Source of the DNA: a virus
Virus record (IMG/VR): IMGVR_UViG_3300023247_000001
Location: 1 to 61,059 of that record
Length of the DNA stretch: 61,059 bases
Reading direction: 5' to 3' (one strand)
Below are positions 1 through 61,059 of the stretch, one piece after another. The position numbers were made by a program, and so were the translations under genes. Numbering within the stretch: the stretch's first letter is position 1; the number at the start of each line of letters is the position of its first letter. Under the pieces are notes generated by a model that worked only from the letters and a program-made list of their open reading frames with translations, was not told the DNA's origin and made no database searches.

Positions 1-127
1 TCAATCGGGAGAAATACGCTGAAATCGTCCATCTGGCTCCTGTAAACGCAAAAAGGCCCGGACGATTGAGCTTTGATAAGCCGTCACGTCCGAGCCAGAT
101 TGTTTCTGTACCCGTCGATTGAGATAT
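1..127. repeat. Terminal direct repeat copy 1 (circular assembly overlap)
   Basis: nt 1-127 read identical to nt 60933-61059; implies a circular or permuted unit of about 60,932 bp. Confidence 0.95.
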
Positions 128-132
128 TACCA
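33..132 (-). promoter_or_regulatory. Late leader cassette A, upstream of the protease/capsid operon
   Basis: Minus strand: TGGTAATAT (124-132), GACGGGTACAG (106-116), 10-bp stem GGCTCGGACG/CGTCCGGGCC (55-64 with 87-98), TTTTT (50-54), GGAG, then ATG. Homologous to cassettes B and C. Confidence 0.6.
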
Positions 133-235
133 CAGCAGGACAGATAAGCTCTTCAGGACAAAAAGAGCCCGACATCTTCGCAGGATGCCGGGCAGGAGGA
201 CTATGTGTTCCAAGGAGGTCGCCGGTACCACCGGT

Positions 236-637
236 CTAACGAGATTCTACAGCCTTCGCGAACGGATCCCTGCCAAAGACACACAACTCGTCAGTGCCAG
301 GTATGAAGATGCGACACAGTTTCGGGCGCGTCTCGTAGATTCCGCAACGACCCTCTGGTGTCAAGTTCGGGCAGTCATAGCGAACTGTGACGTAATCGCG
401 CCCACTCGCATCATCGTGGAAAGTTTCTGCGATAGCGACTGCCTTGAAATCGAGTCTGCGGTCATCAACCCATTTCTGCGCGTCCTGCTTCCAGTTATCA
501 ATCCAGAAAGATTCATGGACACGCGCCCCATCTGCGTTGGGATAGTTCAGCATCAACCCCTTACAGCACGCGCCAGGACTCGGACATATGGAGCAAAGTT
601 GCATTGCAGGATGAAGGATCGGAAGAAGATCACTCAT
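236..637 (-). CDS. Cys-cluster protein, YkgJ/UPF0153-like (CxxCxxCC zinc/iron-chelating domain)
   Basis: 133 aa; CSICPSPGACC near the N-terminus and GRCGIYETRPKLCR later; ATGA overlap with the upstream gene. Confidence 0.55.
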   Translation of the reverse strand: MSDLLPILHPAMQLCSICPSPGACCKGLMLNYPNADGARVHESFWIDNWKQDAQKWVDDRRLDFKAVAIAETFHDDASGRDYVTVRYDCPNLTPEGRCGIYETRPKLCRIFIPGTDELCVFGRDPFAKAVESR

Positions 638-2776: not shown

Positions 2777-2935
2777 TTGCTTCCTTTCTTCAGGCACCGC
2801 CGCGCCAGCGACGAAGTTACTTGGCTTTCTTCTGTTTGTTGAGCGCCTGGCTTATGCGTCCCATCCACTTCAGGACTCGCAAGACGTGACGAGGACCGCG
2901 TGCAAAGCGCATACGGCCCGGTAGACGTGGGATGT

Positions 2936-3247: not shown

Positions 3248-3873
3248 CCCTCCACCCACTTTCCCAGTCCCTTCGCTACAGCGATGGTCGCCAGGGTCAT
3301 ACTGCGCACCGTGGCGATGGTGCCGATGCTCACCACTCGCCCTTGGCTTTCCAGTTCGCGCATGATCTGCGCCTGGTTCCAGTCGGTGTGGAGCATCACC
3401 AGCGCGCGGACGGCATCGGTTGCGGTGTGTTTGGAATTGACCATCTCGTCTACCATCTTCACGTATTGCGGAGGCACGTCAACAATCGGCCCCTCGTGAA
3501 ACATCGGCGTCTTCAGGTCTTCATCAAGAGCTGTCGTGACAGAGTCCATGATCTGCTGCGGTGTTGGCTTCTCGGGCCAGCCAGCATCCACCACGGCATC
3601 GACGATCTTCGGTATGCTGGACGCTTCATCAACGACGATCATTTGCGGGTTGAACCCTGGGCAATGCTCCGGGTCCTGATGCGCCTTGACGCGCTTGGCC
3701 TGTGCGTTGTACCAATCCTGAGCTTCCTTGCTCAGGCGTTCCCAATCGTTATCTGACGCTTTGGACACGGCCAGCACAAGTCGCCGCAGGTAATGTCCGT
3801 CCGGTTCGCCCTCAGCTTGGGGTAAAAACTCTGCGCCGGCCGCTGCCAGCAGTTCACTGTAGATGGTGGTCAT
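3244..3873 (-). CDS. Hypothetical protein
   Basis: 209-aa ORF, protein-like composition. Confidence 0.6.
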   Translation of the reverse strand: MTTIYSELLAAAGAEFLPQAEGEPDGHYLRRLVLAVSKASDNDWERLSKEAQDWYNAQAKRVKAHQDPEHCPGFNPQMIVVDEASSIPKIVDAVVDAGWPEKPTPQQIMDSVTTALDEDLKTPMFHEGPIVDVPPQYVKMVDEMVNSKHTATDAVRALVMLHTDWNQAQIMRELESQGRVVSIGTIATVRSMTLATIAVAKGLGKWVEG

Positions 3874-12144: not shown

Positions 12145-12340
12145 GTATGCCTCCGGCGGCTACGCCGCCCGCTTCGCCGGCAGGATCAGGACACGCTCCG
12201 AACGCAAGGCCAAGCCACGCTCACACACCAAGAGGTGTACGAAGAGCTGTACTCGGGGCTTGGGGAGTGTCTTTTGGGTCCTGTCGGCCATTGGATTTAC
12301 CACCATGACGGGATTATAAAGCATCTTGTGTCCTGATTTC

Positions 12341-16106: not shown

Positions 16107-16663
16107 TGGAAACTCTGCGAATCACCAAAGCAGACTTGAACGAGCGTAACGAATACACACGCTCACGCGACCTTGAATTCGAAGGCCACATCGAAGTTGA
16201 GGCATCGCTCGGATGGGTAGTTGTGCTCGGCTTCATTCGCGCTGGCGGCCGCTTGGGCATCGAGGCTGGCTCGGGCATCAAGGCTGGCTCGGGCATCAAG
16301 GCTGGCTGGGGCATCGAGGCTGGCTTGGGCATCGAGGCTGGCTCGGGCATCAAGGCTGGCTGGGGCATCGAGGCTGGCTGGGGCATCGAGGCTGGCTTGG
16401 GCATCGAGGCTGGCTGGGGCATCGAGGCTGGCTTGGGCATCGAGGCTGGCTGGGGCATCAAGGCTGGCTGGGGCATCAAGGCTGGCTTTTGGATTCACTG
16501 CAAACTCTCAATTTCGGTTAAACTGCGCATCTTTTCTGGCCTCTGCATGTGGCGTCTACCGCGTCCCGAAGAGCAGGAGATTGTTTGCGCCGAGCTGAAG
16601 TCTGGAACCGTGGCTTTCGGGACTCTGAAACTCTTGGAAGCGCCGAAGAAAGAAGGCAAGTAG
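16106..16663 (+). CDS. Hexapeptide-repeat (beta-helix-like) protein of unknown function
   Basis: 185 aa; 13 consecutive G-I-(E/K)-A-G-(W/S/L/F) units; GTG start overlaps the upstream TAG. Confidence 0.6.
   Translation: METLRITKADLNERNEYTRSRDLEFEGHIEVEASLGWVVVLGFIRAGGRLGIEAGSGIKAGSGIKAGWGIEAGLGIEAGSGIKAGWGIEAGWGIEAGLGIEAGWGIEAGLGIEAGWGIKAGWGIKAGFWIHCKLSISVKLRIFSGLCMWRLPRPEEQEIVCAELKSGTVAFGTLKLLEAPKKEGK
16256..16489. repeat. 13 x 18-bp near-perfect tandem repeat (in frame)
   Basis: GGCATC(G/A)AGGCTGGCT(C/G/T)G; only 2 of 18 positions vary, apart from the terminal unit, which ends TTT; all six frames stay open across it. Confidence 0.95.
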
Positions 16664-17874
16664 TGGACAACCAGAATGCACTGCAAGTTCAGGACACTGA
16701 CAAACTGGCCGAGTACCAAGAGCAAAGCATTTCCATGGTGCAGCAGCGGGAAAAGGCCAAGATCGAATCCCGCTACATCATGGCTTTGCGTCAACCGCGT
16801 GACCTTGAAGTGGTTCGCCAGAAGATGTTGCGTGAATGCAGCCGGCCATCTTTCTGTGCTCCTGACATGAGCAAGAACGGGTCGAGCGTCGCGATCTATC
16901 GTGTCCCGCGCGGCGGAAGCAAAATCGAAGGCGTTACTATCCGTTTTGCTGAGATGGCAAAGCGCTGCTACGGTCACATCTTCGTCGAAGTAACTCCGTT
17001 GGGCGAGGATGAGACGCAGCAGATTTACCAAGTCGAGGCAACCGACTATCAGAACAACGACGGCGGCAGTGAGATCGTGATTGTCCCGAAGCGCATCGAG
17101 CGCAGTTTTGCGAAAGACTCTGATGTGGTGTTGGGACGTCGTGAAAACAGCCAAGGCAAGACCACATTCACTATCGTCCCGACCGATGATGACCTTCAGG
17201 TAAAGCGCAACGCGCTCAACTCCAAGGCCCGGCGCAACGTCATCATGCAGTGCATCGATGGCTGGCTGGTCGAAGAGTGCAAAGCTAAGATTCGCGAGAC
17301 GGCGGCGGCGAAAGATGCAGAGAACCCCGGCGCGGCCAAGACGGCCATCTTCGACGCGTTCGCATCCATCGGAGTAACAGCAGCACAACTCAATGAGTAC
17401 ATCGGGCACGCAGGAGATTTGAGTCCTGCCGAGCTTGACGAGATGCGCAGCTTCTTCGGCGGCATCCAGCAGGGTTACACCACATGGGCAGAGATCGCGG
17501 CCAGCAAGGGCGAAGGCAAGGACGAAGGTTCAGCAGATCGCATCGAAGCGCTAGTGAAGGAACTGGAATACACGCCGGCTCAGGCCAGGACGAAGAAGGC
17601 GAAGTACGCAGGGCGCCCGAAAGAGTTGATCGAGTGGCTTGAGGGTGAAGTTGCCAAGAAGCGCAACGACGGAGGTTCTCACTCTGCCAAGAACGCAACG
17701 GCGCAGCAAGTAGAAGACCACAAGGAACCCAAGCCGGAAGCGAAGACCACTCACCGCGAGTCGGCAGAACCGGAGCCACAGCAGGACGCAAAGCAGTCGA
17801 GTCCTGTCGAGCAAGAGAAGCCAGCCGAGACGAAGAAGAGCGCGCCGGCCGCTCCGTCATTCGAGAACTGGTAA
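16663..17874 (+). CDS. Possible recombination-associated (ssDNA-annealing?) protein with Lys/Glu-rich tail
   Basis: Frame of ORF 16549..17874; GTG at 16663 overlaps the upstream TAG; lies next to a Cas4-like nuclease. The function is inferred from context only. Confidence 0.35.
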
Positions 17875-18208: not shown

Positions 18209-18209
18209 C

Positions 18210-19526
18210 ATGAACGTCCCTGCGCTGCGCCAAAGCATTTATGAATCGATGGGGTGCGAGTCAGGCTATCGGCTCGTACACATCGACGGAGTGCGGTTCC
18301 CTGATACTGAGCCAGGGGACCGCGGTACCGATGTCCACGCGATTCATGCAGCCTACGCTGAGCATTGCGCAAAGAAGCACATTCCGGCGGACTTTGTGTA
18401 TCTTGACTCCCTTTGCAAAGCGGCCGGAGAAGAAGTGGCTCAGATCATGGAAACCAGCCGCGACAGCATGAGCATTGATTGGGCAAACTTCTTCGCGGCA
18501 GAGATCAGTTTCGGGCTCGGAGAGGATTTCAGCCCAACATTTAGTTATGACCATGACGGGCGCGTAGTAGATATGAGTCCTGTATGGGATGGTAACGACT
18601 TCGTAGACAGGTTCCTCAAAGAGCCCATGTGCTGCGGAATCATGGACGCAATCTACATCATGCCGGGCGGCAAAGTAGCTAGCATCGTCGATCTGAAGTC
18701 CCATCCTCGCCCGTTTGCTGCTGACACATTTCAAGGCAAGCTCTATAGCCTTGCTCTCATGATGCACATGCCCGAGCTACAGGAGGTTGAGTTTGGTCTC
18801 CGGTTCGTGCGTTATGCGAATCTGGTCAAGACTCAGAAGTACTTCCGCTCCGATGTGCCGGCACTGATGGACGAGGTTCGCCGGGTTCGTGCGCGCCAGG
18901 TTGCCATCCATGAGAAGGTGGCCAATCTCGAACCGCTCAGGACCCACGGCGGCAAGCAATGCACCTATTGCCCTTGCATGTTGGACCCACTGACCTACAA
19001 GTGCCCCACGATGCCTCTGAATCCGTATCTCAACCGCAAGCCAGACGAATGGCTTAGCGTCAAACTTGCAGCACAACAAACCATCGCATCGGCTGACAGG
19101 ATTCTGAAGGAGATGGTGGACGCGACAGGACTCGAAATCTACTCACAGGATGCCAACGGCAAAGTCTACAAGTACGGTCCGAAGCCATCCGAAGAAACTA
19201 TCGCTCCGCTGTTTGTTCAGGACCCGGATGGAGGTTTCAAGATGCCGATTCTGGACGCTTTGACTGACTGGTTCAACGCTAACCCGAAAGACCTCATTCC
19301 TCGCAAGGGAAGCCAGCCATGGTGCTGCAATCTGCGCATTGGATGGTCGCAGCTCAAGAGTTACATCAAAGCGAACAAGCGCGAGTTGATCCACAACAGG
19401 ATTAAAGACCTCGTAACCGTCAAGACAACCGTAGAGTACGGGATCACCAAAGAGCCAGAAGTCGATGACGGAGTGGAAGAGAAGAAACCTTGGGACGCTT
19501 CGGGTCCTGATGAGTTGGAGTTCTAA
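18210..19526 (+). CDS. PD-(D/E)XK nuclease, Cas4/RecB-like
   Basis: GIMDAIY...IVDLKS core and C-terminal cysteines CTYCPC...C; internal ATG of ORF 18066..19526. Confidence 0.65.
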   Translation: MNVPALRQSIYESMGCESGYRLVHIDGVRFPDTEPGDRGTDVHAIHAAYAEHCAKKHIPADFVYLDSLCKAAGEEVAQIMETSRDSMSIDWANFFAAEISFGLGEDFSPTFSYDHDGRVVDMSPVWDGNDFVDRFLKEPMCCGIMDAIYIMPGGKVASIVDLKSHPRPFAADTFQGKLYSLALMMHMPELQEVEFGLRFVRYANLVKTQKYFRSDVPALMDEVRRVRARQVAIHEKVANLEPLRTHGGKQCTYCPCMLDPLTYKCPTMPLNPYLNRKPDEWLSVKLAAQQTIASADRILKEMVDATGLEIYSQDANGKVYKYGPKPSEETIAPLFVQDPDGGFKMPILDALTDWFNANPKDLIPRKGSQPWCCNLRIGWSQLKSYIKANKRELIHNRIKDLVTVKTTVEYGITKEPEVDDGVEEKKPWDASGPDELEF

Positions 19527-19628: not shown

Positions 19629-21551
19629 ATGAAACTCAGCACCATCCATCTTGAAGACTTTGGCCCATACGTGGACCAAACCGTCAATTTTGATCAGCCC
19701 CTCAACGTCATTCGCGGTGATCTTGCACAGGGCAAGACGAAGCTCTCGCAAGCCATCCAACTCAGCTTTGCAAGAATCTGCGATGGCATCGACAGCAAAG
19801 GCTCCGGCTTCCGCGACAAGATCCGTCTCGGGGAAGACAAGGCCATCATCACCGCCGGGCTGGAAACTGCGCAGGGAGCCATCCAAATCAGGACCACCTA
19901 CGGACCCGGCAAGAGGGGACGCGACTCTGTTGTGATTGCAGGAGAGGGCAGCAACTCGGTGAATCTTGCAGCCGGCTTCGAGCAGTACCTACAGCGTAGT
20001 GAGGAGCGGTTCTCTTGTGTCCTGGACTCGGAATACTTCACGCGTCCCGGCACAGATCAGCGCGCCATCCTCGCATCGCTGGTGTTGCCAACGCATCACG
20101 ACTTTGACGCGAAGATGGTCGCATTGGTCGAGAAGCATCTCGGCAAGGTCATCGACTGGAATGCGAGTCCTGTTGCCGTCATCGACAAGGTGTTTGGCGA
20201 CAAGAGCAGCGGAGTCTACAACGCCAGGACGCAAGCCAAGGCGGCTCTCGGGGCCATCTACATCCCACAGAAGCCGGTCCAGCCTCAGTATCCTGCCGAG
20301 TTGGTCCAGCAGAAGCTCTTGGCTCTCCGCGAGAAGGCATCGCAGGAAGCGAAGAAGGTCAAGCGCTCTGGCACAGCGCAGACCGGTCGGCTCGAACGGG
20401 AACTTGAGCAGGTAGCGGAAAAACTCAGCGCGGCATTCTCTGAGCGCACGGCGGCGATTGCCAAGCGTGGCGAGATTGAGTCCGAGATGGTGGACGGCGC
20501 GGCGCTTGCCAGTCTCAAGCAGATTGCCGGCCAGCGCTCAGCCTTCGCCACTCTCCAGACGGCCATCGATGCGCTTTCTGGCGATATTCAAGGGATGAAA
20601 GATGTCCAAGCAATCTTTGAGGGCCTTCGCAGCAATTGCCGGTGCCCGACATGCGGTCAAGGAATCACGCATGAGTTCATCAATGCAGAAATTGCCGAGA
20701 ATAAAGGGCGCGAACTGGAGTTGAATGAGAGCCGTGCGCAACTCACCCAGCAGCAGAAAGCGCTTGGCGACATCAAGGCGGCCGAGGAAGCCATCCAGAA
20801 GCAGGAGAAGTCTGTCGCGGCGAAGCTGGAGCAGGTCAAGAAGGTCACCGAAACCACCGAACGCATCGCCACACTGGAAAAGCAAAGCGGAGATGCCAAG
20901 GCCGCTTTGGAAACCGCCAAGGCTTCCGAGTCCGAGCCGGTCGATACGACAGCAATCGATGCCGTCAATACCGAAATTAGCGAGTGGGAAGCGCGGCTGG
21001 CGCCGGCAGTCCAGTACGAGTCAACGCTGAAGCAGATCGAGACGGCTACAAAGCAATGGCAGGACAAAAAGAACGACGTGGACGAGTTGGAAACACTCTG
21101 CGAGCACTTTGGCCCCAAAGGCATCAAGGCCACTCTTCTGCAGAAGCACATCGGCGGGTTCAATGAGTCTGTGAATCGTGTCCTGAACTGGTGGGGATAC
21201 TCGGCAACGCTATCTTTCGAGCCCTACAGTTTCGACGTGGTGACGCCTGAGACTACACCAAAGACCTTGCCGGTCAAGGAACTGAGTGGTTCTGAGTTGT
21301 TCCGGTTCCTAGTGGCCCTCCAGTGCGCAATCGCCGTCTATTCCAAGATCAAGATGGTCCTGATCGACAAAGCAGACATTCTGATCGATTCGCACCGCGG
21401 CAAGCTCTTCGCCGGGGTCAAGCACCTGCTCGATACTGGGCTACTGGAGAAGGCTTTCATTTTTGTCGCTGACAAGCGGCGTGAGGCTCCGAAGCAAGAG
21501 GGAGTCGGGTTCTACCTGGTGGAGAAAGGAAAGGTCGAACGCCTCTCATGA
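19629..21551 (+). CDS. SMC/Rad50/SbcC-like ATPase
   Basis: N-terminal P-loop GDLAQGKTK, long coiled coil with a CPTCGQ hook-like motif, C-terminal ABC signature region. Confidence 0.7.
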   Translation: MKLSTIHLEDFGPYVDQTVNFDQPLNVIRGDLAQGKTKLSQAIQLSFARICDGIDSKGSGFRDKIRLGEDKAIITAGLETAQGAIQIRTTYGPGKRGRDSVVIAGEGSNSVNLAAGFEQYLQRSEERFSCVLDSEYFTRPGTDQRAILASLVLPTHHDFDAKMVALVEKHLGKVIDWNASPVAVIDKVFGDKSSGVYNARTQAKAALGAIYIPQKPVQPQYPAELVQQKLLALREKASQEAKKVKRSGTAQTGRLERELEQVAEKLSAAFSERTAAIAKRGEIESEMVDGAALASLKQIAGQRSAFATLQTAIDALSGDIQGMKDVQAIFEGLRSNCRCPTCGQGITHEFINAEIAENKGRELELNESRAQLTQQQKALGDIKAAEEAIQKQEKSVAAKLEQVKKVTETTERIATLEKQSGDAKAALETAKASESEPVDTTAIDAVNTEISEWEARLAPAVQYESTLKQIETATKQWQDKKNDVDELETLCEHFGPKGIKATLLQKHIGGFNESVNRVLNWWGYSATLSFEPYSFDVVTPETTPKTLPVKELSGSELFRFLVALQCAIAVYSKIKMVLIDKADILIDSHRGKLFAGVKHLLDTGLLEKAFIFVADKRREAPKQEGVGFYLVEKGKVERLS

Positions 21552-23874: not shown

Positions 23875-24344
23875 TGACCGACTCCGAGCAAGAGAGAGCC
23901 ATCTACCTCGCCTATCCACGTCATGTGGCCCCGCGTGCAGCCCTGAAGGCTATTCAGAAGGCCACTGAACGACTGGTGAAGGATGGAGTCCTGCCAAGCC
24001 AGGAGACGGCGCGCCGGTTCCTCTGGAAGAAGGCCAGGGAGTACGCGCTGAGCCCGGCAGGCCAAAAGCCATCAGGACACGAAGACTTCCGCCCTCACCC
24101 TTCCACATTCTTCAATCAAGACCGCTTTATGGATGATCCTGCCGAGTGGCAGAAACCGAACGGAGCAAGCAATGGAAAGCAGACTGGTACGAAAGCAGAC
24201 AGGACAGTTGATGCAGTCAGAGCCGCTGTCTCCCAAGCAGCAGATCATAGTCGCCCTCGGGACACTGGCATTGATGAGGGGCGGAGAGTACAGCCAAGCG
24301 ACACTGACGGCCTTTTCGGAAGGACTATCGAAGGAACCGTTTGA
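23874..24344 (+). CDS. Conserved phage protein (AIYxxYPR...HPSTFxNQxRF type); the 3' tail is probably not the functional frame
   Basis: The N-terminal 100 aa resemble a family common in phage replication modules. The last ~170 nt overlap the next gene and have poorer third-position GC. Confidence 0.5.
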   Translation: MTDSEQERAIYLAYPRHVAPRAALKAIQKATERLVKDGVLPSQETARRFLWKKAREYALSPAGQKPSGHEDFRPHPSTFFNQDRFMDDPAEWQKPNGASNGKQTGTKADRTVDAVRAAVSQAADHSRPRDTGIDEGRRVQPSDTDGLFGRTIEGTV

Positions 24345-24693
24345 GGATGTGATTGCAACCATCCAGCGGATCTCGGAGAGCCCCCGTCGTGACCGGGAAA
24401 CCGCGTGTCCTGACTTCGGTACGCTTTTGGTGGCCATCCGGTCCATCCGGCACCCGCAAAGGCACCTGAGAGGCATTGTGGCGAAACTGGCGCGCATCTT
24501 TGGCGTGACGGCCGATGAGGAACTGCTCTCGCTGTACGAGGAGCGCGCCGGACACAGGACAGATCAGGACATGGATACGGCTTATCGAGTTCTGAGCCAG
24601 GATGAAACGCTGAAGAGGATGCCCACGCCAGCGCAGTTCTTGGCCGCTTGCGGGGTTCCGAAGATCTACCGGGGCGGGACGAGGCCGGAATGA
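24172..24693 (+). CDS. Hypothetical replication-module protein (possible helicase loader/organizer)
   Basis: Frame of ORF 24133..24693; good third-position GC from about 24172; ATGA-coupled to the methyltransferase gene. Confidence 0.5.
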   Translation: MESRLVRKQTGQLMQSEPLSPKQQIIVALGTLALMRGGEYSQATLTAFSEGLSKEPFEDVIATIQRISESPRRDRETACPDFGTLLVAIRSIRHPQRHLRGIVAKLARIFGVTADEELLSLYEERAGHRTDQDMDTAYRVLSQDETLKRMPTPAQFLAACGVPKIYRGGTRPE

Positions 24694-27617: not shown

Positions 27618-27768
27618 TGCGGTAATGGACGCCTACGCTCAGCGTTACGAACTATCCGTGAAGCAAAAGACGCTTCTCAACCGCTACATAGTTCAAGTGT
27701 CACTCTGCCAGAGCGAGGAAGCGCGCCGATTGCTGTTAGGTGTAAGCCAGAAAGAAGTGGCGGCATGA
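27568..27768 (+). CDS. Hypothetical small basic protein
   Basis: 66 aa; GGAAAGGGAAAG upstream. Confidence 0.5.
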   Translation: MPIKRKPKTPGSGRPSDAVMDAYAQRYELSVKQKTLLNRYIVQVSLCQSEEARRLLLGVSQKEVAA

Positions 27769-37810: not shown

Positions 37811-38947
37811 CTAGTAGCGGTAAAAGGCCAGATGCGTGGCCGTGGGCGGCGGGGCGATGGTGTAGGTGATTGTTGCACCGCTCAATGTGAAGTCAACCCC
37901 TCCCGGCTTCAGGACTTGCCATCCGCGGTAAAGCCGAAGACTGGCGGCGGGATTCGGGGCTTGCGGCAACGTAAAGACTTTGTTGGTCCCGTTCAGCGTT
38001 CCGGTCGGGGTAATCCAATCCGCAAAGTTTGGTTCAGTTCCGCTTCCGGCGTAGGTTCCCCAAGCGAGAAAAGATGCGCTGCCAATCGGCACAGAGGGGA
38101 TGATCGTGTTTCCATCGAGGATGTAGTAATCTTCTCCCGATTCAGAGAACACCGAATCGAGCAAGCACCGTGCCGGCTTGAAGAAGTTGATGATCGTAGC
38201 CATGTAGCTGAGTTGATCTGGAGACGCGCCAAAATTCTGAAACATCCCATTGCGGTAGAGTTCAATGGAAATCGGGGCGTCTGGCAGTACCAGATTCGAC
38301 CCTGAGATGGTCGGCACTACGGCATCGAAGTAGAGTGGCGTCCCGTCCGTGGCCTTGCGCATCAGGACACACAACGAAGAATTCAACGTGGGGGCAAAGG
38401 ACATGGCGAGTACCGTCCCGGCCGATGTGTAGTCAACTCCTGGACGCTGCAAGAGTCCGTTGTAGAAGACGCGGAGAGAACCGCCCACCGGAATTGAAGG
38501 GAGACTGAATACGCGGTTGCTTCCATCGATTACTCCGATGGGTGATTGCCCTGACCCACTCACTCCGACGCGAAATACAGCCCATCCTTGATTAGCGGGG
38601 TAAGCAGACCCTCCCCACGATGCCTGCCCCTCATAGCAGGTTGCAGTGAAGCCACAAAGCCCAAGTGCTTGGACAATAGCTCCCGGTGTGCCCATGATCT
38701 TGTGGAGTGGCAGCGCGTTCTGGATGATGGTCTGTGAGGTAACGCCCAACGCCTGCATCGGGACGCTGGGAATCATCATGTCGAGTTCCCATATCAAGTA
38801 GGGGAGGATGGACGCGGGGAGATTGCTGCCTAGCGTCCTGATAAGCAAAGGCGTGAGGTCGATGGACTCAAGGCGCGCAGAGAGTTGCATGTGGGCTTGG
38901 GTGCGGAGGTCATTGATAGATGATGCGGGCCTGAGATTGTTTGCCAT
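37811..38947 (-). CDS. Baseplate/tail protein, P2 gpI-like
   Basis: N-terminus SIDLTPLLIRTLGSNLPASILPYLIWELDM...HKIMGTPGAIVQAL fits the tail protein I family. Confidence 0.65.
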   Translation of the reverse strand: MANNLRPASSINDLRTQAHMQLSARLESIDLTPLLIRTLGSNLPASILPYLIWELDMMIPSVPMQALGVTSQTIIQNALPLHKIMGTPGAIVQALGLCGFTATCYEGQASWGGSAYPANQGWAVFRVGVSGSGQSPIGVIDGSNRVFSLPSIPVGGSLRVFYNGLLQRPGVDYTSAGTVLAMSFAPTLNSSLCVLMRKATDGTPLYFDAVVPTISGSNLVLPDAPISIELYRNGMFQNFGASPDQLSYMATIINFFKPARCLLDSVFSESGEDYYILDGNTIIPSVPIGSASFLAWGTYAGSGTEPNFADWITPTGTLNGTNKVFTLPQAPNPAASLRLYRGWQVLKPGGVDFTLSGATITYTIAPPPTATHLAFYRY

Positions 38948-39064
38948 GTTGTTCAGGCCCTCCTGTGGCCCTCCCTCTATCGTAGATGCCGGCCTTGCTC
39001 AGGCACCGCACCTCTCGTGCCCGACCTGTAAGTAATCCTGAGCCAATCGCATCAGCTTTAGCGC

Positions 39065-41653
39065 TTAGTTCATCCGGTATTCTGCCGATATCGACAGGTT
39101 TGCCGAGGTACATGTGCCCGATGACACTCCGAAGGTGATGTAGTGCCCCGCCGTGAGCGTTGCACTTGAAACCGACCCATCAAAGTCAGTTGCACTTGTG
39201 ATGGTGACGGACCCCTTTGTAGTGGGGGAGCTACAAGACCCCGGAGAGGTTCCACAGTCGTACATCGTGATTACCGGGTTTACGGTGCATGTGAAAGTTG
39301 CTGCGGCCCCTTCAATATTCTCGACTGTGCCCGGTTTCACCACTTTGAAAACGCCGATGAATGCCCCAACAGGCAGGCTGGAAACTTGCCCGGTCGTTGA
39401 ATAGTATGACGCACGCGGCCCGGCTGAAATTGATGTGTCACCTCCGAAAGCGAAGTTAATTGCACCTATCCCAGCGGGGAATTGATTGCTTGAATTCACC
39501 CCCACATGCTTTGAGCATGTCGCTTGTGTGAGGCTAGAAAATGCCGACGCATGAACGTAAGTGCAAAACAACTCCCCGCCATAGCTGTCGGGGATGACGT
39601 GCATAATGTATGGTGTCGATCCCCACGCGGACGGTACGCCGAACATCACGCCCGCAGAATACCCCGCTGTCGGATAAGCGGTGGAGTAGTTGAGTCCCGG
39701 ATAGACTCCATCGACGGTTACGCTTGGACTCACAACCGATGAAGGGCTGTAGTCCATGTTTGGAACATAGGACGGTTCTGACAGAATCCTATTGATCGAC
39801 CCTGCCGGCGGGATAGGGAGCATGTGGCATCCGCCGCTTAGGAGTTGCGTGTTCGACGTGAGCATCGTCCCGTAGGCATAGTCACACCATCTCCACCCAG
39901 CCCAGCTATTCGGCTGATAGTGCGTATCCCAGGGGGCATTGGACGCGTCAAAAGATAAATTCCATCCCGCAGCAAAACCGGGCAAAGCTTTGACTAGATT
40001 GATGCCCTGCGAAAGCTGGTTGGGCACACTTGCTGGAGGGAAAGCTGGAGGGAAATACGATATTGCCGGATTATCTTCCACGCTCGTGATCGATGGGGGG
40101 AAGAGTCCCAAAAACTGGTTACTTTTGAATGGAGCGTAGTTGACCGCATTTAGCTTACCCTGGATGAAAGACAAGACGGACTGATAAATGACCTGATGGC
40201 CTGGGTTGTTGGGGTGGACGCCATCAGCACCAAGCAGTGCTGCATTATTGAGGGCAGGGACGGCGATTGTGTTCGCGGCTCCGTAGGTGGAGTTAATCCA
40301 AGCCGTCAGCGGGACGTAATTCACGCCGCTTGTTTCAAACAAAGGAAGCAGGTGGTAGACCGTAATCCCCGCTGCCTGCAGTTGTGAGACGATAGAAGCA
40401 TAGTTTGTTTCAATTGTTCCGAGCGCCACGCCAAATGCTACATCATTTCTCCCGATGCACAGGATAATCGTTTTGGGCTTCAAGGCGATCAATTCTGGAA
40501 TTCGGTTCAGCGTGTCATAGGTTGTTTCCGCGCCGCCGGCATCTACTGTCACGCGATAGTTATCCTGGAGCAGTCCCGACCAACTCAACCAGTATGGCCC
40601 GGCAAACTCCCCGAGCGTCTTAGAGTCGCCCACTGCCAAAATATCAACTCCGGTCGGTGTGCCAGAAGAGATGCTCAGGCTAGTAACCGTCTCCGTTCCG
40701 CCGAAGTAATAAATGGCGAACTTGCCGCTGTTCCCCGGCACGTATGGGTTTGTGGTGAGATTGGTCCACTGGTAGGAGGTTGAGACGGGGGCGCTTTGCG
40801 TCGTCACGTCATAAGCTGAGACGTTGATTATATCGTAGTTCCGGCTCACTGTCAGGCTAATGGTATCTCCTGCGGCGAGTGTAAGAGCCGTCGCGGATGT
40901 AGCCACGGGTGCCGTAACATTCGATCCAGCGTCAAGTGCCAACTGTACCTTTCCAGCAAGGGAATCGTTGGACAAATCGATCAGGCCGACAATGTTTTCA
41001 CGATACGAACTGACCCAGTTGTTGCTACGAGTTCCGATTCCGATTGCCGTGTTTGTGCTGATCGCGCCCGCAATGATCGTCTCCGTCATTGACCAGACAG
41101 GAAGATCAGTGGTCCAGTTGTAATCAAGAGTCTGCGAGTAGCTTGGCGTTCCGCCACTGAAAACAAAATTACCACCCGTGATCGTGGGAGTGGCACCATT
41201 GGATGTGAATCCATTAAGGTTCGTCCAATTCGAGCCACTATAAATTTGACCGAGTGCTGGAAGGTTATTTGTCACGACAAAGCCATTCGAGCACACGCTT
41301 CCTGCGGGCGCTCCAGATGGACATGCAGCGCCAGCTGCGAGGGTGCCTGAGAACGATGCGCTGGTGCCGGTGAGTGCGCCGGTCAGCGTACCGCCAGTTG
41401 CGGGTAGATTATTCACCCATCCAGAGGTTGTGCATTTGTACTCGACATTATTCGTCGTGTCCTGATAAGACTGTCCCCACTCTGCTCCATAGGGGTAAAC
41501 AGTGTAGTTTCCGTTCTGGGTGCACGTGATCGAAGGCGCACCAGAACCGGAAAGCAAATTCCATTTAATCTGATAAGTCGGGTCAATCTGCGTCTGAGCA
41601 AAGCAGGTGATAACTGACAAGATCAGGAAAATAAAGAGCGCGATTCGTTTCAT
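39065..41653 (-). CDS. Tail fibre/spike protein with SGNH (GDSL) esterase domain and N-terminal signal peptide
   Basis: MKRIALFIFLILSVITCFAQT; GGTLTGALTGTSASFSG; SGNH blocks AVGDSKT, CIGRNDV and DGVHPN. Confidence 0.65.
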   Translation of the reverse strand: MKRIALFIFLILSVITCFAQTQIDPTYQIKWNLLSGSGAPSITCTQNGNYTVYPYGAEWGQSYQDTTNNVEYKCTTSGWVNNLPATGGTLTGALTGTSASFSGTLAAGAACPSGAPAGSVCSNGFVVTNNLPALGQIYSGSNWTNLNGFTSNGATPTITGGNFVFSGGTPSYSQTLDYNWTTDLPVWSMTETIIAGAISTNTAIGIGTRSNNWVSSYRENIVGLIDLSNDSLAGKVQLALDAGSNVTAPVATSATALTLAAGDTISLTVSRNYDIINVSAYDVTTQSAPVSTSYQWTNLTTNPYVPGNSGKFAIYYFGGTETVTSLSISSGTPTGVDILAVGDSKTLGEFAGPYWLSWSGLLQDNYRVTVDAGGAETTYDTLNRIPELIALKPKTIILCIGRNDVAFGVALGTIETNYASIVSQLQAAGITVYHLLPLFETSGVNYVPLTAWINSTYGAANTIAVPALNNAALLGADGVHPNNPGHQVIYQSVLSFIQGKLNAVNYAPFKSNQFLGLFPPSITSVEDNPAISYFPPAFPPASVPNQLSQGINLVKALPGFAAGWNLSFDASNAPWDTHYQPNSWAGWRWCDYAYGTMLTSNTQLLSGGCHMLPIPPAGSINRILSEPSYVPNMDYSPSSVVSPSVTVDGVYPGLNYSTAYPTAGYSAGVMFGVPSAWGSTPYIMHVIPDSYGGELFCTYVHASAFSSLTQATCSKHVGVNSSNQFPAGIGAINFAFGGDTSISAGPRASYYSTTGQVSSLPVGAFIGVFKVVKPGTVENIEGAAATFTCTVNPVITMYDCGTSPGSCSSPTTKGSVTITSATDFDGSVSSATLTAGHYITFGVSSGTCTSANLSISAEYRMN

Positions 41654-41672: not shown

Positions 41673-42959
41673 TTAGCTAACTGGTTGGTTCTTTGTGCCC
41701 ATAACGATGGTGAGGTTTACCGCAGTGCAGTTTGCCCATTGTCCTGCTGTGAGCAAGAAACTGCCGTCAGAAGTTGGCGTGAGTGGTGTCCCGCCGATGT
41801 TTGCGGTCAGCGTTAGTTGCATGTCGTAGACGCCAGAAACACTGAGCGCCGATTGCCATTGGCTCAGGACTATATCTTGCTCGATGTTTGCGGCGAGCGT
41901 CAAGGCGAGATTCTGGGCGGCCGCAGTGATTCCAGCGGCGATGGTCGAGTAACTGGCGTTGGCGTAGAGCGTGATCGCTCCGGTCACGGTGTAATCAACT
42001 TCGGTCACAGCCGAAACCAGAACGGTGTCGCAAAGAGGACGCACGGTCTGCGCACTGAGAGCCGATTGAACAGCGGAAAGCAGCGTGCCAGAGGCAATGC
42101 CAGAACTGTTTGGGGATGCGGACGGTTGCGTTACGGGTCCTGTCAGGACATAGACCTGCACCGTGCCCGGCGTTGTCGGCGTTGTCGGGACTTGCGCATC
42201 AACGATTGTCGAACTCACGTCAAGCGCGAGAGATCGGTACTGCCCTGATGGACCAGCCGTCGTGAGGTTGTTCGGCGCTGCCTGAATGCGCGTGCGGTAG
42301 TGGTTGTCTCCCGCAGTCGTTCCGGCCGGCTCTCCGTCAGTTCCATTGGCCGTTGTGGTAGTGTTGGCGACGGCAGAGACGAGCGGAAAAGAACCCATCA
42401 GGACACTGACTTGTCCGGCAATATAGCCGTTGCCGCTGAGTCCCGCCGTGGTGCATTGCGCCGCCACAGTGCCGACCGTCTGCCCGGCGACTATCGTGAG
42501 CGCCGCAGTCGTGGCGAAGATGTTGAGGCCGTCTTGAGTCCCGACCTGCGTGCCAGAGGCTATCGTGGTGTCGGATGACTGTGATGCAGTGAGCGTGAAC
42601 TGTAACGTCGTGGTGGCGTACTGCGCGGGTAGCCTGGTGCAATCCAGATACTCGCCGAGGTAGTCCAGCATCGGATAGACGGCGAACGCGAGCAGGTTCT
42701 GAAGACCGCAATACTGGATCGCATTTCGGACCAGAATCTCGCGGTAGGCGTAGAGATTGATAAGCAACTGCTCTACCTGGGCCGGGTAGAGGGTCCTGCT
42801 GGTGTAACTCTCAAAAAGCGTCACCATGTCGTTCAGGACACTCGTCGGGTCGAGGCCGTCTGAGTCGTTGACGAATGAAGGTGTGGGCAGGTCAACAGGG
42901 ACTGTCTGAGGAGTGCCGGTGGCCGGCGGGAACGAGTTCGCGGGGATTATGACCGGCAT
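41673..42959 (-). CDS. Baseplate protein, gpJ-like
   Basis: 428 aa; position after the gpW-like gene; LINLYAYREILVRNAIQYCGLQNLLAFA block typical of Baseplate_J. Confidence 0.75.
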   Translation of the reverse strand: MPVIIPANSFPPATGTPQTVPVDLPTPSFVNDSDGLDPTSVLNDMVTLFESYTSRTLYPAQVEQLLINLYAYREILVRNAIQYCGLQNLLAFAVYPMLDYLGEYLDCTRLPAQYATTTLQFTLTASQSSDTTIASGTQVGTQDGLNIFATTAALTIVAGQTVGTVAAQCTTAGLSGNGYIAGQVSVLMGSFPLVSAVANTTTTANGTDGEPAGTTAGDNHYRTRIQAAPNNLTTAGPSGQYRSLALDVSSTIVDAQVPTTPTTPGTVQVYVLTGPVTQPSASPNSSGIASGTLLSAVQSALSAQTVRPLCDTVLVSAVTEVDYTVTGAITLYANASYSTIAAGITAAAQNLALTLAANIEQDIVLSQWQSALSVSGVYDMQLTLTANIGGTPLTPTSDGSFLLTAGQWANCTAVNLTIVMGTKNQPVS

Positions 42960-57667: not shown

Positions 57668-59260
57668 TTAGAACGTCTGGGTTCCCGTCGGCTGGTTGAT
57701 GTTGGTCAGGATGGCGAAGGCTGGGGCGAAGTACAGGGCGAACGTCTCATCGACATACACGCCGTACTCATTGCGCCGGGTGCGCAGCGGCCAGGACACT
57801 TGCACATAGTCCTGACGGACACGCGCTTCGAGGATGTTGGCCACGCCGCTCAGGGGGTACGGAGAGCGATCGGACCAGAAGAGAATCGTGCCCGGAGGCA
57901 GGTTGGGGTGCGTTTCAATCGGCAGCGTGTTGCCGTAGATCTTGTTCTTGTAGGCGTTGACCGTGCGCCCGGCAACGATCTGAGAACCGCTTCCCGAGTC
58001 CGCCTCAAACACCATGCGGAGGCTGTTGTTGGTGCTGGCCGTGTTCAAGAACTGAGAGATGTTCGAGTTCAGGTCGGTCGAGCTAACCAAAATCCGGTCA
58101 AAGCCAATCTTGTACTGGTCGTAGGCAGCCTGGAAGACGGCGTCGAACTCGACGATGCTGGTACCGGCAATCGTCAGGCCCGCATTGCCGCTGGCGCCTT
58201 GGAAGATCAGCGCGCCGGAGCCCGCATATCCGAGAGTACCGCTGGCCACAACGGGGAGATTCGGGTTGGTTGCCATGGCGGTGCCAGGAGCGGAACCGGA
58301 TACGGAACCGTTGATCTGGCTGAGGATGCCATCGGGAAGCAGGGTGTTGGTCGAATTGTCCTGATACGCGCCGTTGACCTGAAGAGCGGTGATCAGTTGA
58401 TTGGTGGTGGACGGGACCGAGCTGAACTTCGCCTGGTTCGTGGTGGTGATGCCCTGGAGCCGGGCCGCGCCGGTCGTGGTCCCGAAGTACCAAGCGTAGG
58501 CTACGGCGTTGACCACAGGCGTAACGGTTGCGGTGATGATCTGGCCGGCAGTCGGGGTGATGGTGGCCTGTGCCGAAGGTTGAGCCGATCCGCCGCCCAC
58601 ATTGGTGATGGTTCCCGTGGTGCTGGTCAGTGTGACCTGCCCAGGGATGCCGTTGGCCATGCTGCCGGTGCGCCATCCGGCGTGACTGAGGGCAACGCAA
58701 ACGAGGTAGTAGGGAACGTTGGAAAGCGCCGAAGTAGTGCCGGCGGCGGTCAAGGTGGGCGTGGGAGTGATGCCCAGCGGGGTGGAGGCATTGCCGCCGA
58801 TGAGCGTCTGCTCTTCGCCCACCATGACACCTTGCAGCGTGGCCTGAATCGTCACGCCCTGAGCATCGGGCTTGAGGTTGAGAGCGGCCAGCCGCGCTTC
58901 CCAAGACACGGAACCTTCGAGGCCCATCGTCTTGTAGCTTGCCAATTGGTCCTGAACCGTGATGGCGGAAGCGGCCGCGCGCTCGCCCTCGGGGACGCCG
59001 ATGGAAACGTTGTTGACATTGATGCCGGTGACCCTCTTCCAACGGTGCGCCGTGCCGCCATCGGCAGGGACGCGGGGAAGGCTGGAGATCAGCGGAATCA
59101 ACTGCTTGAACGGGTGCATTTCCTGAACGATGCGGCTCAGGTCGTACCACACCAGCCCTGTGTTCTGGTCAACAGTGTCGGCCTTTGCGAGAGTGCCGAC
59201 ACGCTCGTCAATGGCCTGCTTGAAAGTGTCGCTTTGCAGGAACTTCTCAAAATCATTCAT
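57668..59260 (-). CDS. Major capsid protein
   Basis: 530 aa; directly downstream of the protease/scaffold gene; followed by a strong terminator. Confidence 0.7.
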   Translation of the reverse strand: MNDFEKFLQSDTFKQAIDERVGTLAKADTVDQNTGLVWYDLSRIVQEMHPFKQLIPLISSLPRVPADGGTAHRWKRVTGINVNNVSIGVPEGERAAASAITVQDQLASYKTMGLEGSVSWEARLAALNLKPDAQGVTIQATLQGVMVGEEQTLIGGNASTPLGITPTPTLTAAGTTSALSNVPYYLVCVALSHAGWRTGSMANGIPGQVTLTSTTGTITNVGGGSAQPSAQATITPTAGQIITATVTPVVNAVAYAWYFGTTTGAARLQGITTTNQAKFSSVPSTTNQLITALQVNGAYQDNSTNTLLPDGILSQINGSVSGSAPGTAMATNPNLPVVASGTLGYAGSGALIFQGASGNAGLTIAGTSIVEFDAVFQAAYDQYKIGFDRILVSSTDLNSNISQFLNTASTNNSLRMVFEADSGSGSQIVAGRTVNAYKNKIYGNTLPIETHPNLPPGTILFWSDRSPYPLSGVANILEARVRQDYVQVSWPLRTRRNEYGVYVDETFALYFAPAFAILTNINQPTGTQTF

Positions 59261-59326
59261 CTCAGATTCTCCTATTGCCGAGTTGCTGACTAAAAGCTGG
59301 AACCGCTGTGGACTGCGCTGGCCGGT

Positions 59327-60964
59327 CTAGTTGCCGCCCAGGTCAATCTTGAAGTTGGGGTCGTTGATCGACTTCGCAAACCCGCTGCCAGGGGTGCACA
59401 TCAGACCGAAAGCGCGCGCCGTGGCCTGCTCAGAGCTGCGCTGGTCGTTCGGATCAGCTTCGGAGAGCGATTTGTTGATCATCCGGTTGAAGTCAGCCTT
59501 GCCGTCGCTGGCCGGGAACACATCCCCGGTAGAGTTGGCAACGAACAGCTTCGGGCGGCGGCCGGCGGAGGGCTGATTCTCGATCACGGACATCTGACCC
59601 TTCAGGAAAGCGTTGTCGGCAATCAGCGGGGCGGTAGCTTCGGCCACAGCGGCCTTGACCATCGTCGCAATTGCAGCCGCAGAATAAGGCGAGTCGCCAG
59701 CGCCGCGGAAGGTGTTGCCCTCCACTTCGCCTTCAGTCATGCGCCGCGTGGAAAGCTCTTCGACGTTCTCCGAATGAGGCTTCTCGCCCAAGTCGGTTTC
59801 CGCCTTCTCGCCATCCCAGCCAGTCATGGCCTTGCCGAGCGCAGCGTGAGCCAGTTCGTGATGGTCGGCAATGTCGTTCATGTGTCCCGAAAGCGCCGTG
59901 AGGTGCTTCTTGAACTCATCGCCGCCGTCGGCCGCCTTGCCCATGCACTTGTGAAGAGCCTCAAGTTCATCGACCGCCTTGCCGTGGGAGGCCGAAGCCT
60001 TCTTGATGTGGTCATCGGCCTTCTTGATGGCCGCCTTTTTCCCTGCCGTGAACCGCTTCTGGAGGTCAGTATCCATGATGGTGCTCTCCTTTTGCTTTGT
60101 GCTGCCCGGCCAATCGGCGGGTAGAAGGTGGGTTGCGTTCAGCGCTTTCGCGCGTGTGACGATGTGAGCCTTGGCTTTCTCGGGGTCCGATGCGCGGCCA
60201 AAGGCTTGGACGGCGTTCTCAAGATCCTTCACGGTCTGGACAGGGAAAGAACCGTCGGGAAGCGCTACCCCAGTGCTACCGAGGTGCTTGCGTTCCTTTT
60301 CGCTGAACTCCCGCTTCTCAAGGTCAACGCCGTCCGCAAACTTGGCGGTCAGAGTGGCCATCTCATCGGCGGTCAGTTCCTCGGACTCAACAGGACTCAG
60401 ATTCGTGTCCTGTGCGGCTTTGGCAAGGTCCGGGAGTGCAATCTTCCCCATCCCGAGAATCGTCCGGAACGTGTCAAGCGCCTTTTCCATCAAAGTCTCG
60501 TTACTGGTTTGATTCTCCATCGACCCTCCAAAGGCGAGCCCACCGGCAATCTTCACGATGTCAATGCGACAATCGGAGTTCGCCGGCCGGTCAACGAGGC
60601 TGATCTCTCGCAAGGAAAGCGCCTTGACCACATCGCCAACCTTCTCCAGTTTGGAACCGCCGATACTGAATCCCTTGTAGACGCCTTCCTTGCACAGCTT
60701 CCACGCAGCGGGATCAACGATCTTGGCTCCGATGTACAGCCCTTTGGCGTCAATGTGGGCCTCTTTGGTCACGCCAACGGCATTGTTGGTGTGCATGGTC
60801 CTGATGTTCGCCCACTTCATGTAGTCGGGGAGGGCGGCCTTGATGGCGTCCAGCGGAACAATCTCCCCTTGCAGGTCCTTCGATGGCGTTGAGGCATAGC
60901 CCCAGACCATTCCGCTCTGCGCGTCCACCTTCTCAATCGGGAGAAATACGCTGAAATCGTCCAT
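59327..60964 (-). CDS. Prohead protease (HK97/S78-like) fused to a scaffold-like C-terminal region
   Basis: N-terminal ~140 aa ending REISLVDRPANSDCRI; long helical Lys/Glu/Ala-rich remainder. Confidence 0.7.
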   Translation of the reverse strand: MDDFSVFLPIEKVDAQSGMVWGYASTPSKDLQGEIVPLDAIKAALPDYMKWANIRTMHTNNAVGVTKEAHIDAKGLYIGAKIVDPAAWKLCKEGVYKGFSIGGSKLEKVGDVVKALSLREISLVDRPANSDCRIDIVKIAGGLAFGGSMENQTSNETLMEKALDTFRTILGMGKIALPDLAKAAQDTNLSPVESEELTADEMATLTAKFADGVDLEKREFSEKERKHLGSTGVALPDGSFPVQTVKDLENAVQAFGRASDPEKAKAHIVTRAKALNATHLLPADWPGSTKQKESTIMDTDLQKRFTAGKKAAIKKADDHIKKASASHGKAVDELEALHKCMGKAADGGDEFKKHLTALSGHMNDIADHHELAHAALGKAMTGWDGEKAETDLGEKPHSENVEELSTRRMTEGEVEGNTFRGAGDSPYSAAAIATMVKAAVAEATAPLIADNAFLKGQMSVIENQPSAGRRPKLFVANSTGDVFPASDGKADFNRMINKSLSEADPNDQRSSEQATARAFGLMCTPGSGFAKSINDPNFKIDLGGN

Positions 60965-61059
60965 CTGGCTCCTGTAAACGCAAAAAGGCCCGGACGATTG
61001 AGCTTTGATAAGCCGTCACGTCCGAGCCAGATTGTTTCTGTACCCGTCGATTGAGATAT
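60933..61059. repeat. Terminal direct repeat copy 2 (circular assembly overlap)
   Basis: Identical to nt 1-127; contains the first 32 nt of the protease gene plus its leader. Confidence 0.95.

Follow-up and report, generated by a model that had tools for sequence, protein, structure and literature searches.

A dense, asymmetric GTCCTG-centred DNA word in a clade of peat-soil tailed phages

DNA words that recur throughout a genome, such as Chi, the DNA uptake sequences (DUS) and uptake signal sequences (USS), the highly iterated palindrome HIP1 and the FtsK-orienting polar sequences (KOPS), have been described as traits of cellular lineages; phages usually just mirror or exploit them. The stoperators of Cluster A mycobacteriophages and the C1 operators of P1 are asymmetric sites of 13–17 bp read by a phage protein, with specificities that co-evolve between sublineages; they number 10–35 per genome, are mostly intergenic and are oriented with transcription. 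Here we analysed a 61,059-nucleotide stretch of viral DNA (positions 1 to 61,059 of IMG/VR record IMGVR_UViG_3300023247_000001), which at its full length is referred to as the window. It represents a tailed phage, with genes for sheath, tape-measure, portal and large-terminase proteins, and is densely populated on both strands by the hexamer GTCCTG, read as CAGGAC on the complementary strand. This word is a trait of a clade that comprises tailed phages and phage-like elements of peat soil, and not of the host chromosome, the methyltransferases or codon usage.

Several described systems bear comparison. The lambdoid phage LLS carries one Chi per 1.86 kb with a strand polarity of 20 versus 3 (PMC12315714), and lambdoid phages without RecBCD inhibitors are Chi-enriched as well (PMC3784561). 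As in Chi-rich phages, a short asymmetric word far above expectation is found here, which undergoes turnover, is scarce in recently imported modules and has a plausible tie to DNA-end processing and recombination. However, Chi is strand-polarised, clustered at one end and abundant in the host, whereas in the window the orientations are balanced (92 versus 83), the distribution is uniform and host loci are not enriched. Moreover, Chi-rich phages are without a Rec module and without a RecBCD inhibitor (PMC12315714), whereas this phage has a RecB-family nuclease, a gene at the position of an annealase, an SSB-like protein and a Rad50-like ATPase. HIP1 (GCGATCGC) is likewise hyper-abundant, conserved above its surroundings and present in coding and non-coding DNA, and its function has stayed unresolved after decades (PMC4390886; PMC5861425). 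In contrast to the present word, which is asymmetric, phage-specific and uncoupled from both encoded methyltransferases, HIP1 is a palindrome and a host-lineage trait that correlates with methyltransferases recognising its inner bases. The DUS of Neisseria and the USS of Pasteurellaceae come close in many respects: ~10–12 bp in length, a strong core with weaker flanks, both orientations, all frames, random placement, a density of about one per kb or more, and dialects differing at one or two positions. Yet these are bacterial-chromosomal words read by the competence machinery, whereas here it is a phage clade that carries the word, and loci of the presumptive host show no enrichment. A partial likeness to CCTGAA-type DUS dialects is probably coincidental. 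Finally, the stoperators and C1 operators have in common with the word that asymmetric sites are scattered over a phage genome and differ as dialects between lineages, but here 110–175 sites are present, 83% of them in genes, in all frames and without orientation preference beyond coding constraint.

Abundance, architecture and conservation of the word

Exact counting gave 92 copies of GTCCTG and 83 of CAGGAC, that is 175 sites spread over 1..61059 (2.87 per kb), making the word the most frequent and most enriched hexamer of the window, 4.8-fold above composition. An earlier note on this DNA, made by eye, had reported about 175 occurrences (~2.9 per kb), which proved accurate, as did the twelve positions it listed within the first 3 kb and two close pairs, GTCCTG-T-CAGGAC at 42137–42149 and CAGGAC at 24555 and 24565. 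Its expectation of 35–40 copies agrees with a mononucleotide null (36.4), whereas its G+C estimate of ~57% was slightly off (56.0%). Markov models of order 1, 2 and 3 predict 36.2, 35.6 and 58.9 copies, respectively, and the maximal order 4 predicts 119.9 (observed/expected 1.46); this last null is made from overlapping 5-mers that are themselves inflated by the word.

In principle, codon, dicodon or dinucleotide usage could produce such an enrichment artefactually, for instance through GTC-CTG (Val-Leu) and CAG-GAC (Gln-Asp). GTC, CTG, CAG and GAC are indeed preferred codons here, the order-4 ratio is low, and ordinary codon usage, which includes GTC-CTG, suffices to bring high-G+C actinobacteria to about 2 sites per kb. 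However, codon-aware nulls, computed on 72 genes called with a heuristic, self-trained codon model (86% of the window coding), fall far short of the count. Shuffling synonymous codons within genes predicts 75.0 copies (standard deviation 5.6, maximum 91 in 500 shuffles; z = 18), and a third-position shuffle that keeps protein, codon usage and dinucleotides predicts 105.7 (standard deviation 5.4, maximum 123; z = 12.8). Since the 30 intergenic sites are held fixed in both, these nulls are conservative. Neither they nor the maximal-order Markov model, all of which the earlier note had called for, reproduce 175 copies. When all 2080 hexamers were ranked under the synonymous null, CAGGAC reached z = 15 and the overlapping TCAGGA z = 11.8, the best unrelated hexamer being CATCGG with z = 7.8. 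In loci of ~13–21 kb, the codon-aware top hexamers attain z values of 3–6.5 in unrelated phages and hosts and of 7–8.5 in clade members; the former values indicate that some apparent enrichments, such as that of ACCGGC in one unrelated locus (L045), are ordinary. Further evidence against a codon artefact is that the in-frame classes are the least enriched, that the 30 intergenic sites have the same flanks and that the extended site is 59-fold enriched (see below). Hence, we regard this explanation as exceedingly unlikely. A literature search on the GTCCTG word, and likewise on over-represented heptamers in phages, returned nothing relevant.

The real unit is not the bare hexamer, as the earlier note had it, but an asymmetric site of ~12 bp, T-N-N-G-D-GTCCTG-A. 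With all copies oriented on GTCCTG, which is not its own reverse complement, a T occupies position -5 in 96 of the 175 sites, G occupies -2 in 111 and a base other than C occupies -1 in 154. Position +1 is A in 87 sites, C and T in 39 each and G in 10, i.e. it is "not G, mostly A". The earlier description of the flanks therefore holds for G at -2 and for A, G or T at -1, but "A or T at +1" does not, C being as frequent as T, and the T at -5 had been missed. Enrichment rises with each flank feature added: GNGTCCTG occurs 111 times versus 10.2 expected, TNNGNGTCCTG 64 times versus 2.2, and the full consensus TNNGNGTCCTGA 29 times versus 0.5 expected from composition, which is 59-fold. Conversely, hexamers lacking the flank features (VNNHNGTCCTG) are near background, with 32 copies versus 20 expected, and the near-miss variants GNGTCCT[A/C/T] (11 versus 26) and GNGTCGTG (1 versus 10) are depleted. 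On the plus strand the 14 full-consensus copies start at 3668 (3668..3679), 9920, 10147, 10754, 12998, 13344, 15038, 19499, 31002, 32075, 32605, 37482, 43305 and 45190; the 15 copies on the minus strand have their low coordinates at 2870 (2870..2881), 6194, 9715, 10556, 16689, 17982, 19217, 22859, 24072, 27095, 38362, 42398, 50457, 56588 and 56895. The same flank preferences recur in each reading-frame class taken by itself as well as among the 30 intergenic sites, and thus belong to a DNA site and are not an echo of codons. A likeness of the site to the tRNA T-arm (TTCGAGTCCTG) was considered and dismissed, as it applies to some intergenic sites only and there is no overall conservation at positions -4 and -3.

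Genes contain 145 of the 175 sites (83%), near the coding fraction of 86%, the remainder being intergenic; the occurrence in both kinds of DNA had been noted before. All reading frames are used. Relative to the synonymous null, the in-frame classes CAG-GAC (34 versus 22.4) and GTC-CTG (30 versus 9.6) are 1.5- and 3.1-fold enriched, whereas the out-of-frame classes span 4.2- to 8.1-fold, with 29 versus 3.7 copies of C-AGG-AC (7.8-fold) and 22 versus 2.7 of xGT-CCT-G (8.1-fold). AGG makes up 10% of the Arg codons; 29 of the 85 AGG codons stand in the C-AGG-AC context, and AGG is used in 30 of 60 Arg-Thr pairs. This bears out the suggestion that the word is often built from AGG-ACN, and the four sites cited for it do read ...C AGG ACT... 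in frame. Of the 145 coding sites, 89 have CAGGAC on the sense strand (61%, estimated earlier at ~60%). As the shuffled null predicts ~71%, this bias reflects coding constraint and reveals no transcription-related orientation preference.

Along the genome the sites are placed at random. Bins of 1 kb hold 2.87 sites on average with a variance of 2.80, as in a Poisson process, and the gaps are exponential, with a coefficient of variation of 1.08 overall and of 0.92–0.93 per strand, where the spacing is about 660–735 bp. No strand skew or strand switch is seen along the genome, both orientations being uniformly distributed. Clustering, pairing and periodicity were likewise rejected, given 23 gaps below 60 bp versus ~27 expected from Poisson placement; the inverted close pair at 42137..42149, which involves both strands, is accordingly no sign of over-represented pairs. 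The largest motif-free stretch, 2.6 kb at 38841..41458, lies in a tail-fibre-like gene of 862 aa on the minus strand (39065–41653), which has 1 site versus 7.4 expected (P = 0.005, uncorrected). This would fit a recent import that has yet to accumulate the word.

The word is conserved above its surroundings. As close relatives we used 42 IMG/VR contigs whose terminase is 94–99% identical to that of the window, and in all 42 the density of the word is about 3.3 per kb. Substitutions were analysed in 41 of them, the near-identical L001 being excluded, at 85–91% identity in aligned DNA. Mismatches amount to 11.4% inside versus 24.9% outside the word at third codon positions, to 2.0% versus 6.3% at first codon positions and to 5.0% versus 10.0% in intergenic DNA, so that in every class the rate within the word is about half that of the surroundings or less. 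Of the site-relative pairs, 80.8% keep the hexamer, the median for 544 hexamers being 58%. In the aligned regions the window has 892 sites and the relatives have 877, of which 724 are common, and the differences extend over all six positions; sites thus turn over at equilibrium. Taken together, the use of all frames, the identical flanks, the recruitment of AGG codons and the halved substitution rates strongly support that selection acts on the DNA itself, and not on the protein, to keep the word at ~3 per kb genome-wide, on either strand and in any frame, as the earlier note had suspected from codon choice.

A process without function could leave similar traces. Molecular drive through biased mutation, repair or gene conversion by the clade's replication and recombination enzymes, as proposed for uptake sequences or HIP1, would account for random placement, drifting dialects and equilibrium turnover as well as for the depletion of near-miss variants, and repeated conversion back to the word could mimic conservation. 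However, the relatives differ at all six core positions, mostly by ordinary transitions and with no dominant position or mismatch type, the codon-aware null reveals no strong depletion of any one-off neighbour, and there is no known enzymology for restoring any of nine specified positions. These observations also dispose of a repair drive acting at a single position, and a drive of the very-short-patch-repair type is rejected because GTTCTG (41 versus 32) and GTCTTG (50 versus 42) are not depleted. We therefore consider molecular drive improbable.

Distribution of the word among phages, modification genes and host loci

The window has no close relative among sequenced isolates, and a terminase scan of a collection of 185,579 species genomes gave no match. 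In IMG/VR, all 23 of 23 viral loci with a relative of the window's phrog_3657 protein (43–99% identity) are enriched in a word with the CAGGA core and the TnnGnGTCCTG architecture, and relatives of its RecB/Cas4-type nuclease at 44–95% identity all reside in enriched contigs. The enriched loci, of which the distant ones were read over about 20 kb each, share a replication and recombination module composed of the annealase-position gene, the nuclease, a Rad50/SbcC-like ATPase, an HNH endonuclease, an SSB-like protein, a 173-aa protein and DnaB. Phage-like contigs that carry a Dps protein 74–79% identical to that of the window contain 2.8–3.3 sites per kb; in two of them, L174 and L175, the remaining genes in common with the window are only ~48% identical. 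In contrast, no enrichment of the word is seen in about 150 unrelated viral contigs or in phages whose terminase is 46–49% identical to that of the window. A search of IMG/VR by nuclease alignment for remoter relatives of the module recovered the same clade only. In one contig with a 46% identical terminase (L043; IMG/VR 3300037246, 4.6 kb), ACGTTG/CAACGT occurs 16 times (3.5 per kb, 8 per strand) versus 2–7.5 expected, and may be another lineage-specific word, the sample being small.

Within the clade the word is split into dialects. Position +1 is A in the window's own clade (GTCCTGA) and C elsewhere (GTCCTGC), with some lineages shifted toward TCCTGCG; sister lineages contain 9–19 copies of TNNGNGTCCTGC versus 0.1–0.2 expected. 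Among the strongest enrichments is that of L384 (ENA ERZ25039518 contig_8230, 112 kb), where a Pfam RecT gene replaces phrog_3657, the nuclease is 57% identical and ATPase and DnaB are common to the window: GCAGGAC occurs 55 times versus 3.5, TNNGNGTCCTGC 19 times versus 0.2, and GCAGGA reaches 4.3 per kb. The same contig, much larger than the 60–72-kb genomes of the clade, also encodes ArdC, a resolvase, a ParB-like helix-turn-helix protein and a DUF87 ATPase, and may be a phage-plasmid. The most distant carrier of the module, L381 (a 21-kb Logan contig, SRR29078249), has a 35% identical nuclease together with ATPase, HNH and DnaB. Here, the CAGGAC word is at most mildly enriched (19 versus 9.7), and GCTCGAG occurs 42 times versus 7–14 expected, evenly spread at ~2 per kb, which looks more HIP1-like. 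Its core, the palindrome CTCGAG, does not occur at all in the window. Also encoded at the L381 locus are GroES/GroEL and an Acb2/Tad1-like protein. A further clade member, the 72-kb contig L382 (JGI 3300072492), carries a prokaryotic ubiquitin-like/E2/ThiF cluster, GroES/GroEL and a tyrosine integrase, the last of which suggests that some clade members may be temperate.

The word might instead be the target of a DNA-modifying enzyme, either one of the two methyltransferases, as the earlier note had considered, or an unrecognised enzyme, with more sites providing more protective modification. The phage encodes a C5-cytosine DNA methyltransferase (24690..26114, plus strand; Pfam PF00145), an N6/N4 DNA methyltransferase and a PAPS-reductase/DndC-like protein, and for cyanobacteria a correlation between methyltransferases and the abundance of HIP1 is documented (PMC4390886). 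However, neither methyltransferase co-occurs with the enrichment. The N6/N4 enzyme (29496–30578) forms a mobile, motif-poor cassette with an SNF2-like helicase (28072–29505; cassette 27618..30578, plus strand), which contains 3 sites versus 8.5 expected, the helicase gene itself having 0 versus 4.1. The cassette proteins are 85–91% identical (86–91% for the N6/N4 enzyme) in three contigs, L294, L298 and L299, that are otherwise unrelated to the window and have 0.2–0.3 sites per kb. A near-identical cassette in non-enriched contigs, itself poor in the motif, rules out the N6/N4 enzyme as determinant. In the three contigs together, GTCCTG occurs 8 times versus ~22 expected in 37 kb and GNGTCCTG 0 times versus 6; these co-resident phages may avoid the word.

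The C5 enzyme fares no better as a determinant. In the equally enriched close relative L181 (gene at 9871–11427), its variable region (180–280 aa) is rearranged, with the N- and C-terminal catalytic parts being near-identical, which suggests swapping of the target-recognition module, and the word is not enriched in 79 further viral contigs that encode related C5 enzymes. At the syntenic place, distant enriched relatives gave no C5 homologue. Repeated ...SADGFDASEDGTGRG... segments are present in the variable region. The PAPS-reductase-like gene, too, has no homologue in the loci read from distant enriched relatives, and six-base palindromes, which such enzymes usually protect, are avoided by the phage. 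A modification target is thus decidedly improbable. As for the palindromes themselves, CTCGAG (0 versus 17), CCCGGG (0 versus 16), GAGCTC (2 versus 20), GTCGAC (3 versus 25), CAGCTG (3 versus 21) and CGATCG (5 versus 24) fall far below the codon-aware null, a pattern typical of restriction-enzyme pressure; CCTTAA/TTAAGG (1 versus 23) is avoided as well, and the Shine-Dalgarno-like AGGAGG and GGAGGA reach half their expected counts.

The host is likely a member of the Acidobacteriaceae, judged from the phage's Dps/ferritin-like protein (12808–13314, minus strand), which is 71–73% identical to Dps of Terracidiphilus and other Acidobacteria, and from the origin of the source metagenomes, which we take to be peat. 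Five chromosomal loci of Acidobacteriaceae (20.5 kb each) contain 8–12 copies of GTCCTG versus 8–10 expected (Markov order 2) and 3–4 copies of GNGTCCTG versus about 4 expected. A scan of the 185,579 species genomes for three clustered sites yielded, among the matches listed, only tandem repeats and high-G+C actinobacteria, and cold-shock-protein homologues, followed as a route to host DNA, led to phage relatives only. The idea, also raised in the earlier note, of an iterated motif of the host lineage that is HIP1- or DUS/USS-like and is inherited or mirrored by the phage is therefore hard to maintain. It draws on the uptake-sequence-like behaviour of the word, i.e. core plus weaker flanks, both orientations and all frames, and on the fact that the host group was assigned by one protein, Dps, so that the true host might differ. 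Neither the five likely-host loci nor other peat phages are enriched, however, and the genome scan adds a weak argument in the same direction; we judge a host-lineage motif very unlikely.

A related possibility is that the word is the Chi of the host RecBCD or AddAB enzyme, accumulated by the phage to turn a host nuclease into a recombinase. Chi-rich phages are documented (PMC12315714; PMC3784561), and the word is short, asymmetric and selected. In addition, the Acidobacteriaceae loci around dps (L177 and L284–L287) show a strand asymmetry of TCCTGC versus GCAGGA of ~3:1 (20:6, 14:4, 13:6, 18:5), but being syntenic they amount to one observation, with a GC skew of -0.05 to -0.09 and gene orientation not controlled. 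Opposed to this possibility are the absence of enrichment in host-type loci, the equal and uniform use of the two strands, the phage's own Rec module and the co-resident phages with the 85–91% identical cassette, which hold the word at or below expectation. We consider a host Chi unlikely.

The conserved module and candidate readers

The findings are consistent with a site under weak selection, additive in its benefit and independent of position and orientation, whose reader co-evolves with the clade. What is known so far to travel with the word is a single module. It includes the phrog_3657 protein (16663..17874), at the annealase position where L384 has its Pfam RecT gene. All genes of the module are on the plus strand. 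The conserved marker of the enriched clade is a RecB/Cas4-family PD-(D/E)XK nuclease with iron-sulphur-cluster cysteines (18210..19526; Pfam PF12705). Its AlphaFold model (mean pLDDT 76) finds its best PDB matches in the Cas4-family ACE1, the AdnA nuclease, RecE, the AddB nuclease domain and Dna2, and the model places it in the end-resection type. Adjoining it is a conserved Rad50/SbcC-like ATPase (AAA_23; 19629..21551). The module further comprises an HNH endonuclease (21548–22075) and a putative SSB-like protein with an acidic tail containing ...DIPF (22235–22909), a tail motif on which its assignment is based. A conserved protein of 173 aa (24172..24693), 73–81% identical in the distant L279 and L281, lies just upstream of the region of the DnaB-type replicative helicase (26111..27472) and is a possible helicase loader or initiator; it has no family match and no PDB match. 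PDB sequence searches with three module proteins gave no match for two and E-values of only 0.24 and 0.6 for the third.

Since this module alone is known to accompany the word and its nuclease belongs to an end-resection family, we tentatively favour, as one possibility among several, that the word is a dense Chi-like "self" signal, recognised by the clade's own enzymes of end processing and recombination. The reader would be a component of the machinery formed by nuclease, Rad50/SbcC-like ATPase, annealing protein, SSB-like protein and DnaB. Whichever DNA end a nuclease or translocase entered, it would meet a correctly oriented site within ~1 kb and there switch from degradation to a protected, recombinogenic end, while motif-poor DNA of the host or of competitors would not be spared. 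Ends might arise anywhere through headful packaging or recombination-dependent replication. In agreement with this, the genome assembles as a circle: bases 1–127 are identical to 60933–61059, a k-mer overlap that holds no site, so that none was counted twice, and that gives a true length of 60,932 bp; alignments of the relatives wrap around the window ends, consistent with circular assembly. If ends can arise anywhere, sites would be needed everywhere and in both orientations, and with a per-strand spacing of ~0.7 kb a correctly oriented site would be near any end. In its fullest form the proposal would be a phage-autonomous self-marking, in which the clade writes a ~12-bp Chi-like word and its RecB/Cas4 nuclease and Rad50-like machinery, or a partner, reads it, sparing or recombining phage DNA while motif-poor DNA is degraded, with a specificity that co-evolves from GTCCTGA to GTCCTGC to TCCTGCG, and to GCTCGAG in the most distant member. 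This elaboration is more doubtful than the general reading.

Several points weigh against a Chi-like self signal. The reader protein is no more than a candidate, and as the module defines the clade, shared ancestry confounds its association with the word. We know of no Cas4/RecE-type phage nuclease or Rad50-like ATPase that recognises a Chi-like sequence. The spacing is random, with no sign of selection against long unprotected gaps. About 20 kb were read per distant relative, so a shared gene beyond this range could be the real reader. Moreover, Chi-rich phages are characterised by strand polarity, end clustering and the lack of a Rec module (PMC12315714), and this phage shows none of the three.

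A different reader could act on duplex DNA. The word may form a binding-site array for a phage double-strand DNA-binding protein, either architectural and condensing or of the small-terminase type, in which case it would be a distributed packaging signal marking phage over host DNA. A site of about one helical turn that is asymmetric, as for a monomeric reader, would suit such a protein, as would the lack of orientation and position preference, the clade-specific dialects and the motif-poor host. Furthermore, a small-terminase-like gene of the Sf6 type, below the Pfam cut-off, lies at 11442–11744, and circular assembly is compatible with headful packaging. On the other hand, no helix-turn-helix or nucleoid-type protein that could serve as candidate binder was found in the conserved module, the encoded Dps appears to be without a Lys-rich DNA-binding tail, and to our knowledge no phage uses a genome-wide packaging word. 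We hold this array to be a doubtful alternative, though one to be kept in mind beside the Chi-like self signal.

The G-D-GTC flank resembles the primase sites GGGTC and GTGTC of T7, a lead only. Recognition sites of a primase, of the T7 GTC or DnaG CTG type, were rejected since neither Pfam nor PHROGs reveal a primase domain in the genes scanned and there is no strand switch.

Further observations and meaning of the word

Two other features of the genome deserve mention. A permuted two-piece transfer-messenger RNA (tmRNA) is encoded at 12330–12773 on the minus strand, where Rfam RF04321 scores 87.7 bits at 12421–12717 and alpha_tmRNA 50.6 bits, just over the cut-off; ARAGORN also calls a tmRNA. 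In the distant relative L174 the stretch coding for the tag is 74% identical, and a tmRNA is unusual in a phage with a likely acidobacterial host. An open reading frame at 16106–16663 (plus strand) consists of Gly-rich tandem repeats (GIEAGSGIKAGW...), contains the 16-mer GCCAGCCTCGATGCCC eight times and has zero copies of the word; it is 57% identical in L281, and the repeats are expanded in L268 and L275.

What sets the word apart from the systems considered at the outset is that it is owned by a phage clade, is not enriched in loci of the likely host, is under measurable selection and is split into dialects. For the study of uncultured phages, it provides a simple signature by which members of this clade can be recognised in soil metagenomes. 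If a phage factor reads the word, this would be a virus-encoded discrimination of self from non-self by sequence density instead of chemical modification, with a bearing on phage recombination, the degradation of host DNA and the competition of co-infecting phages.

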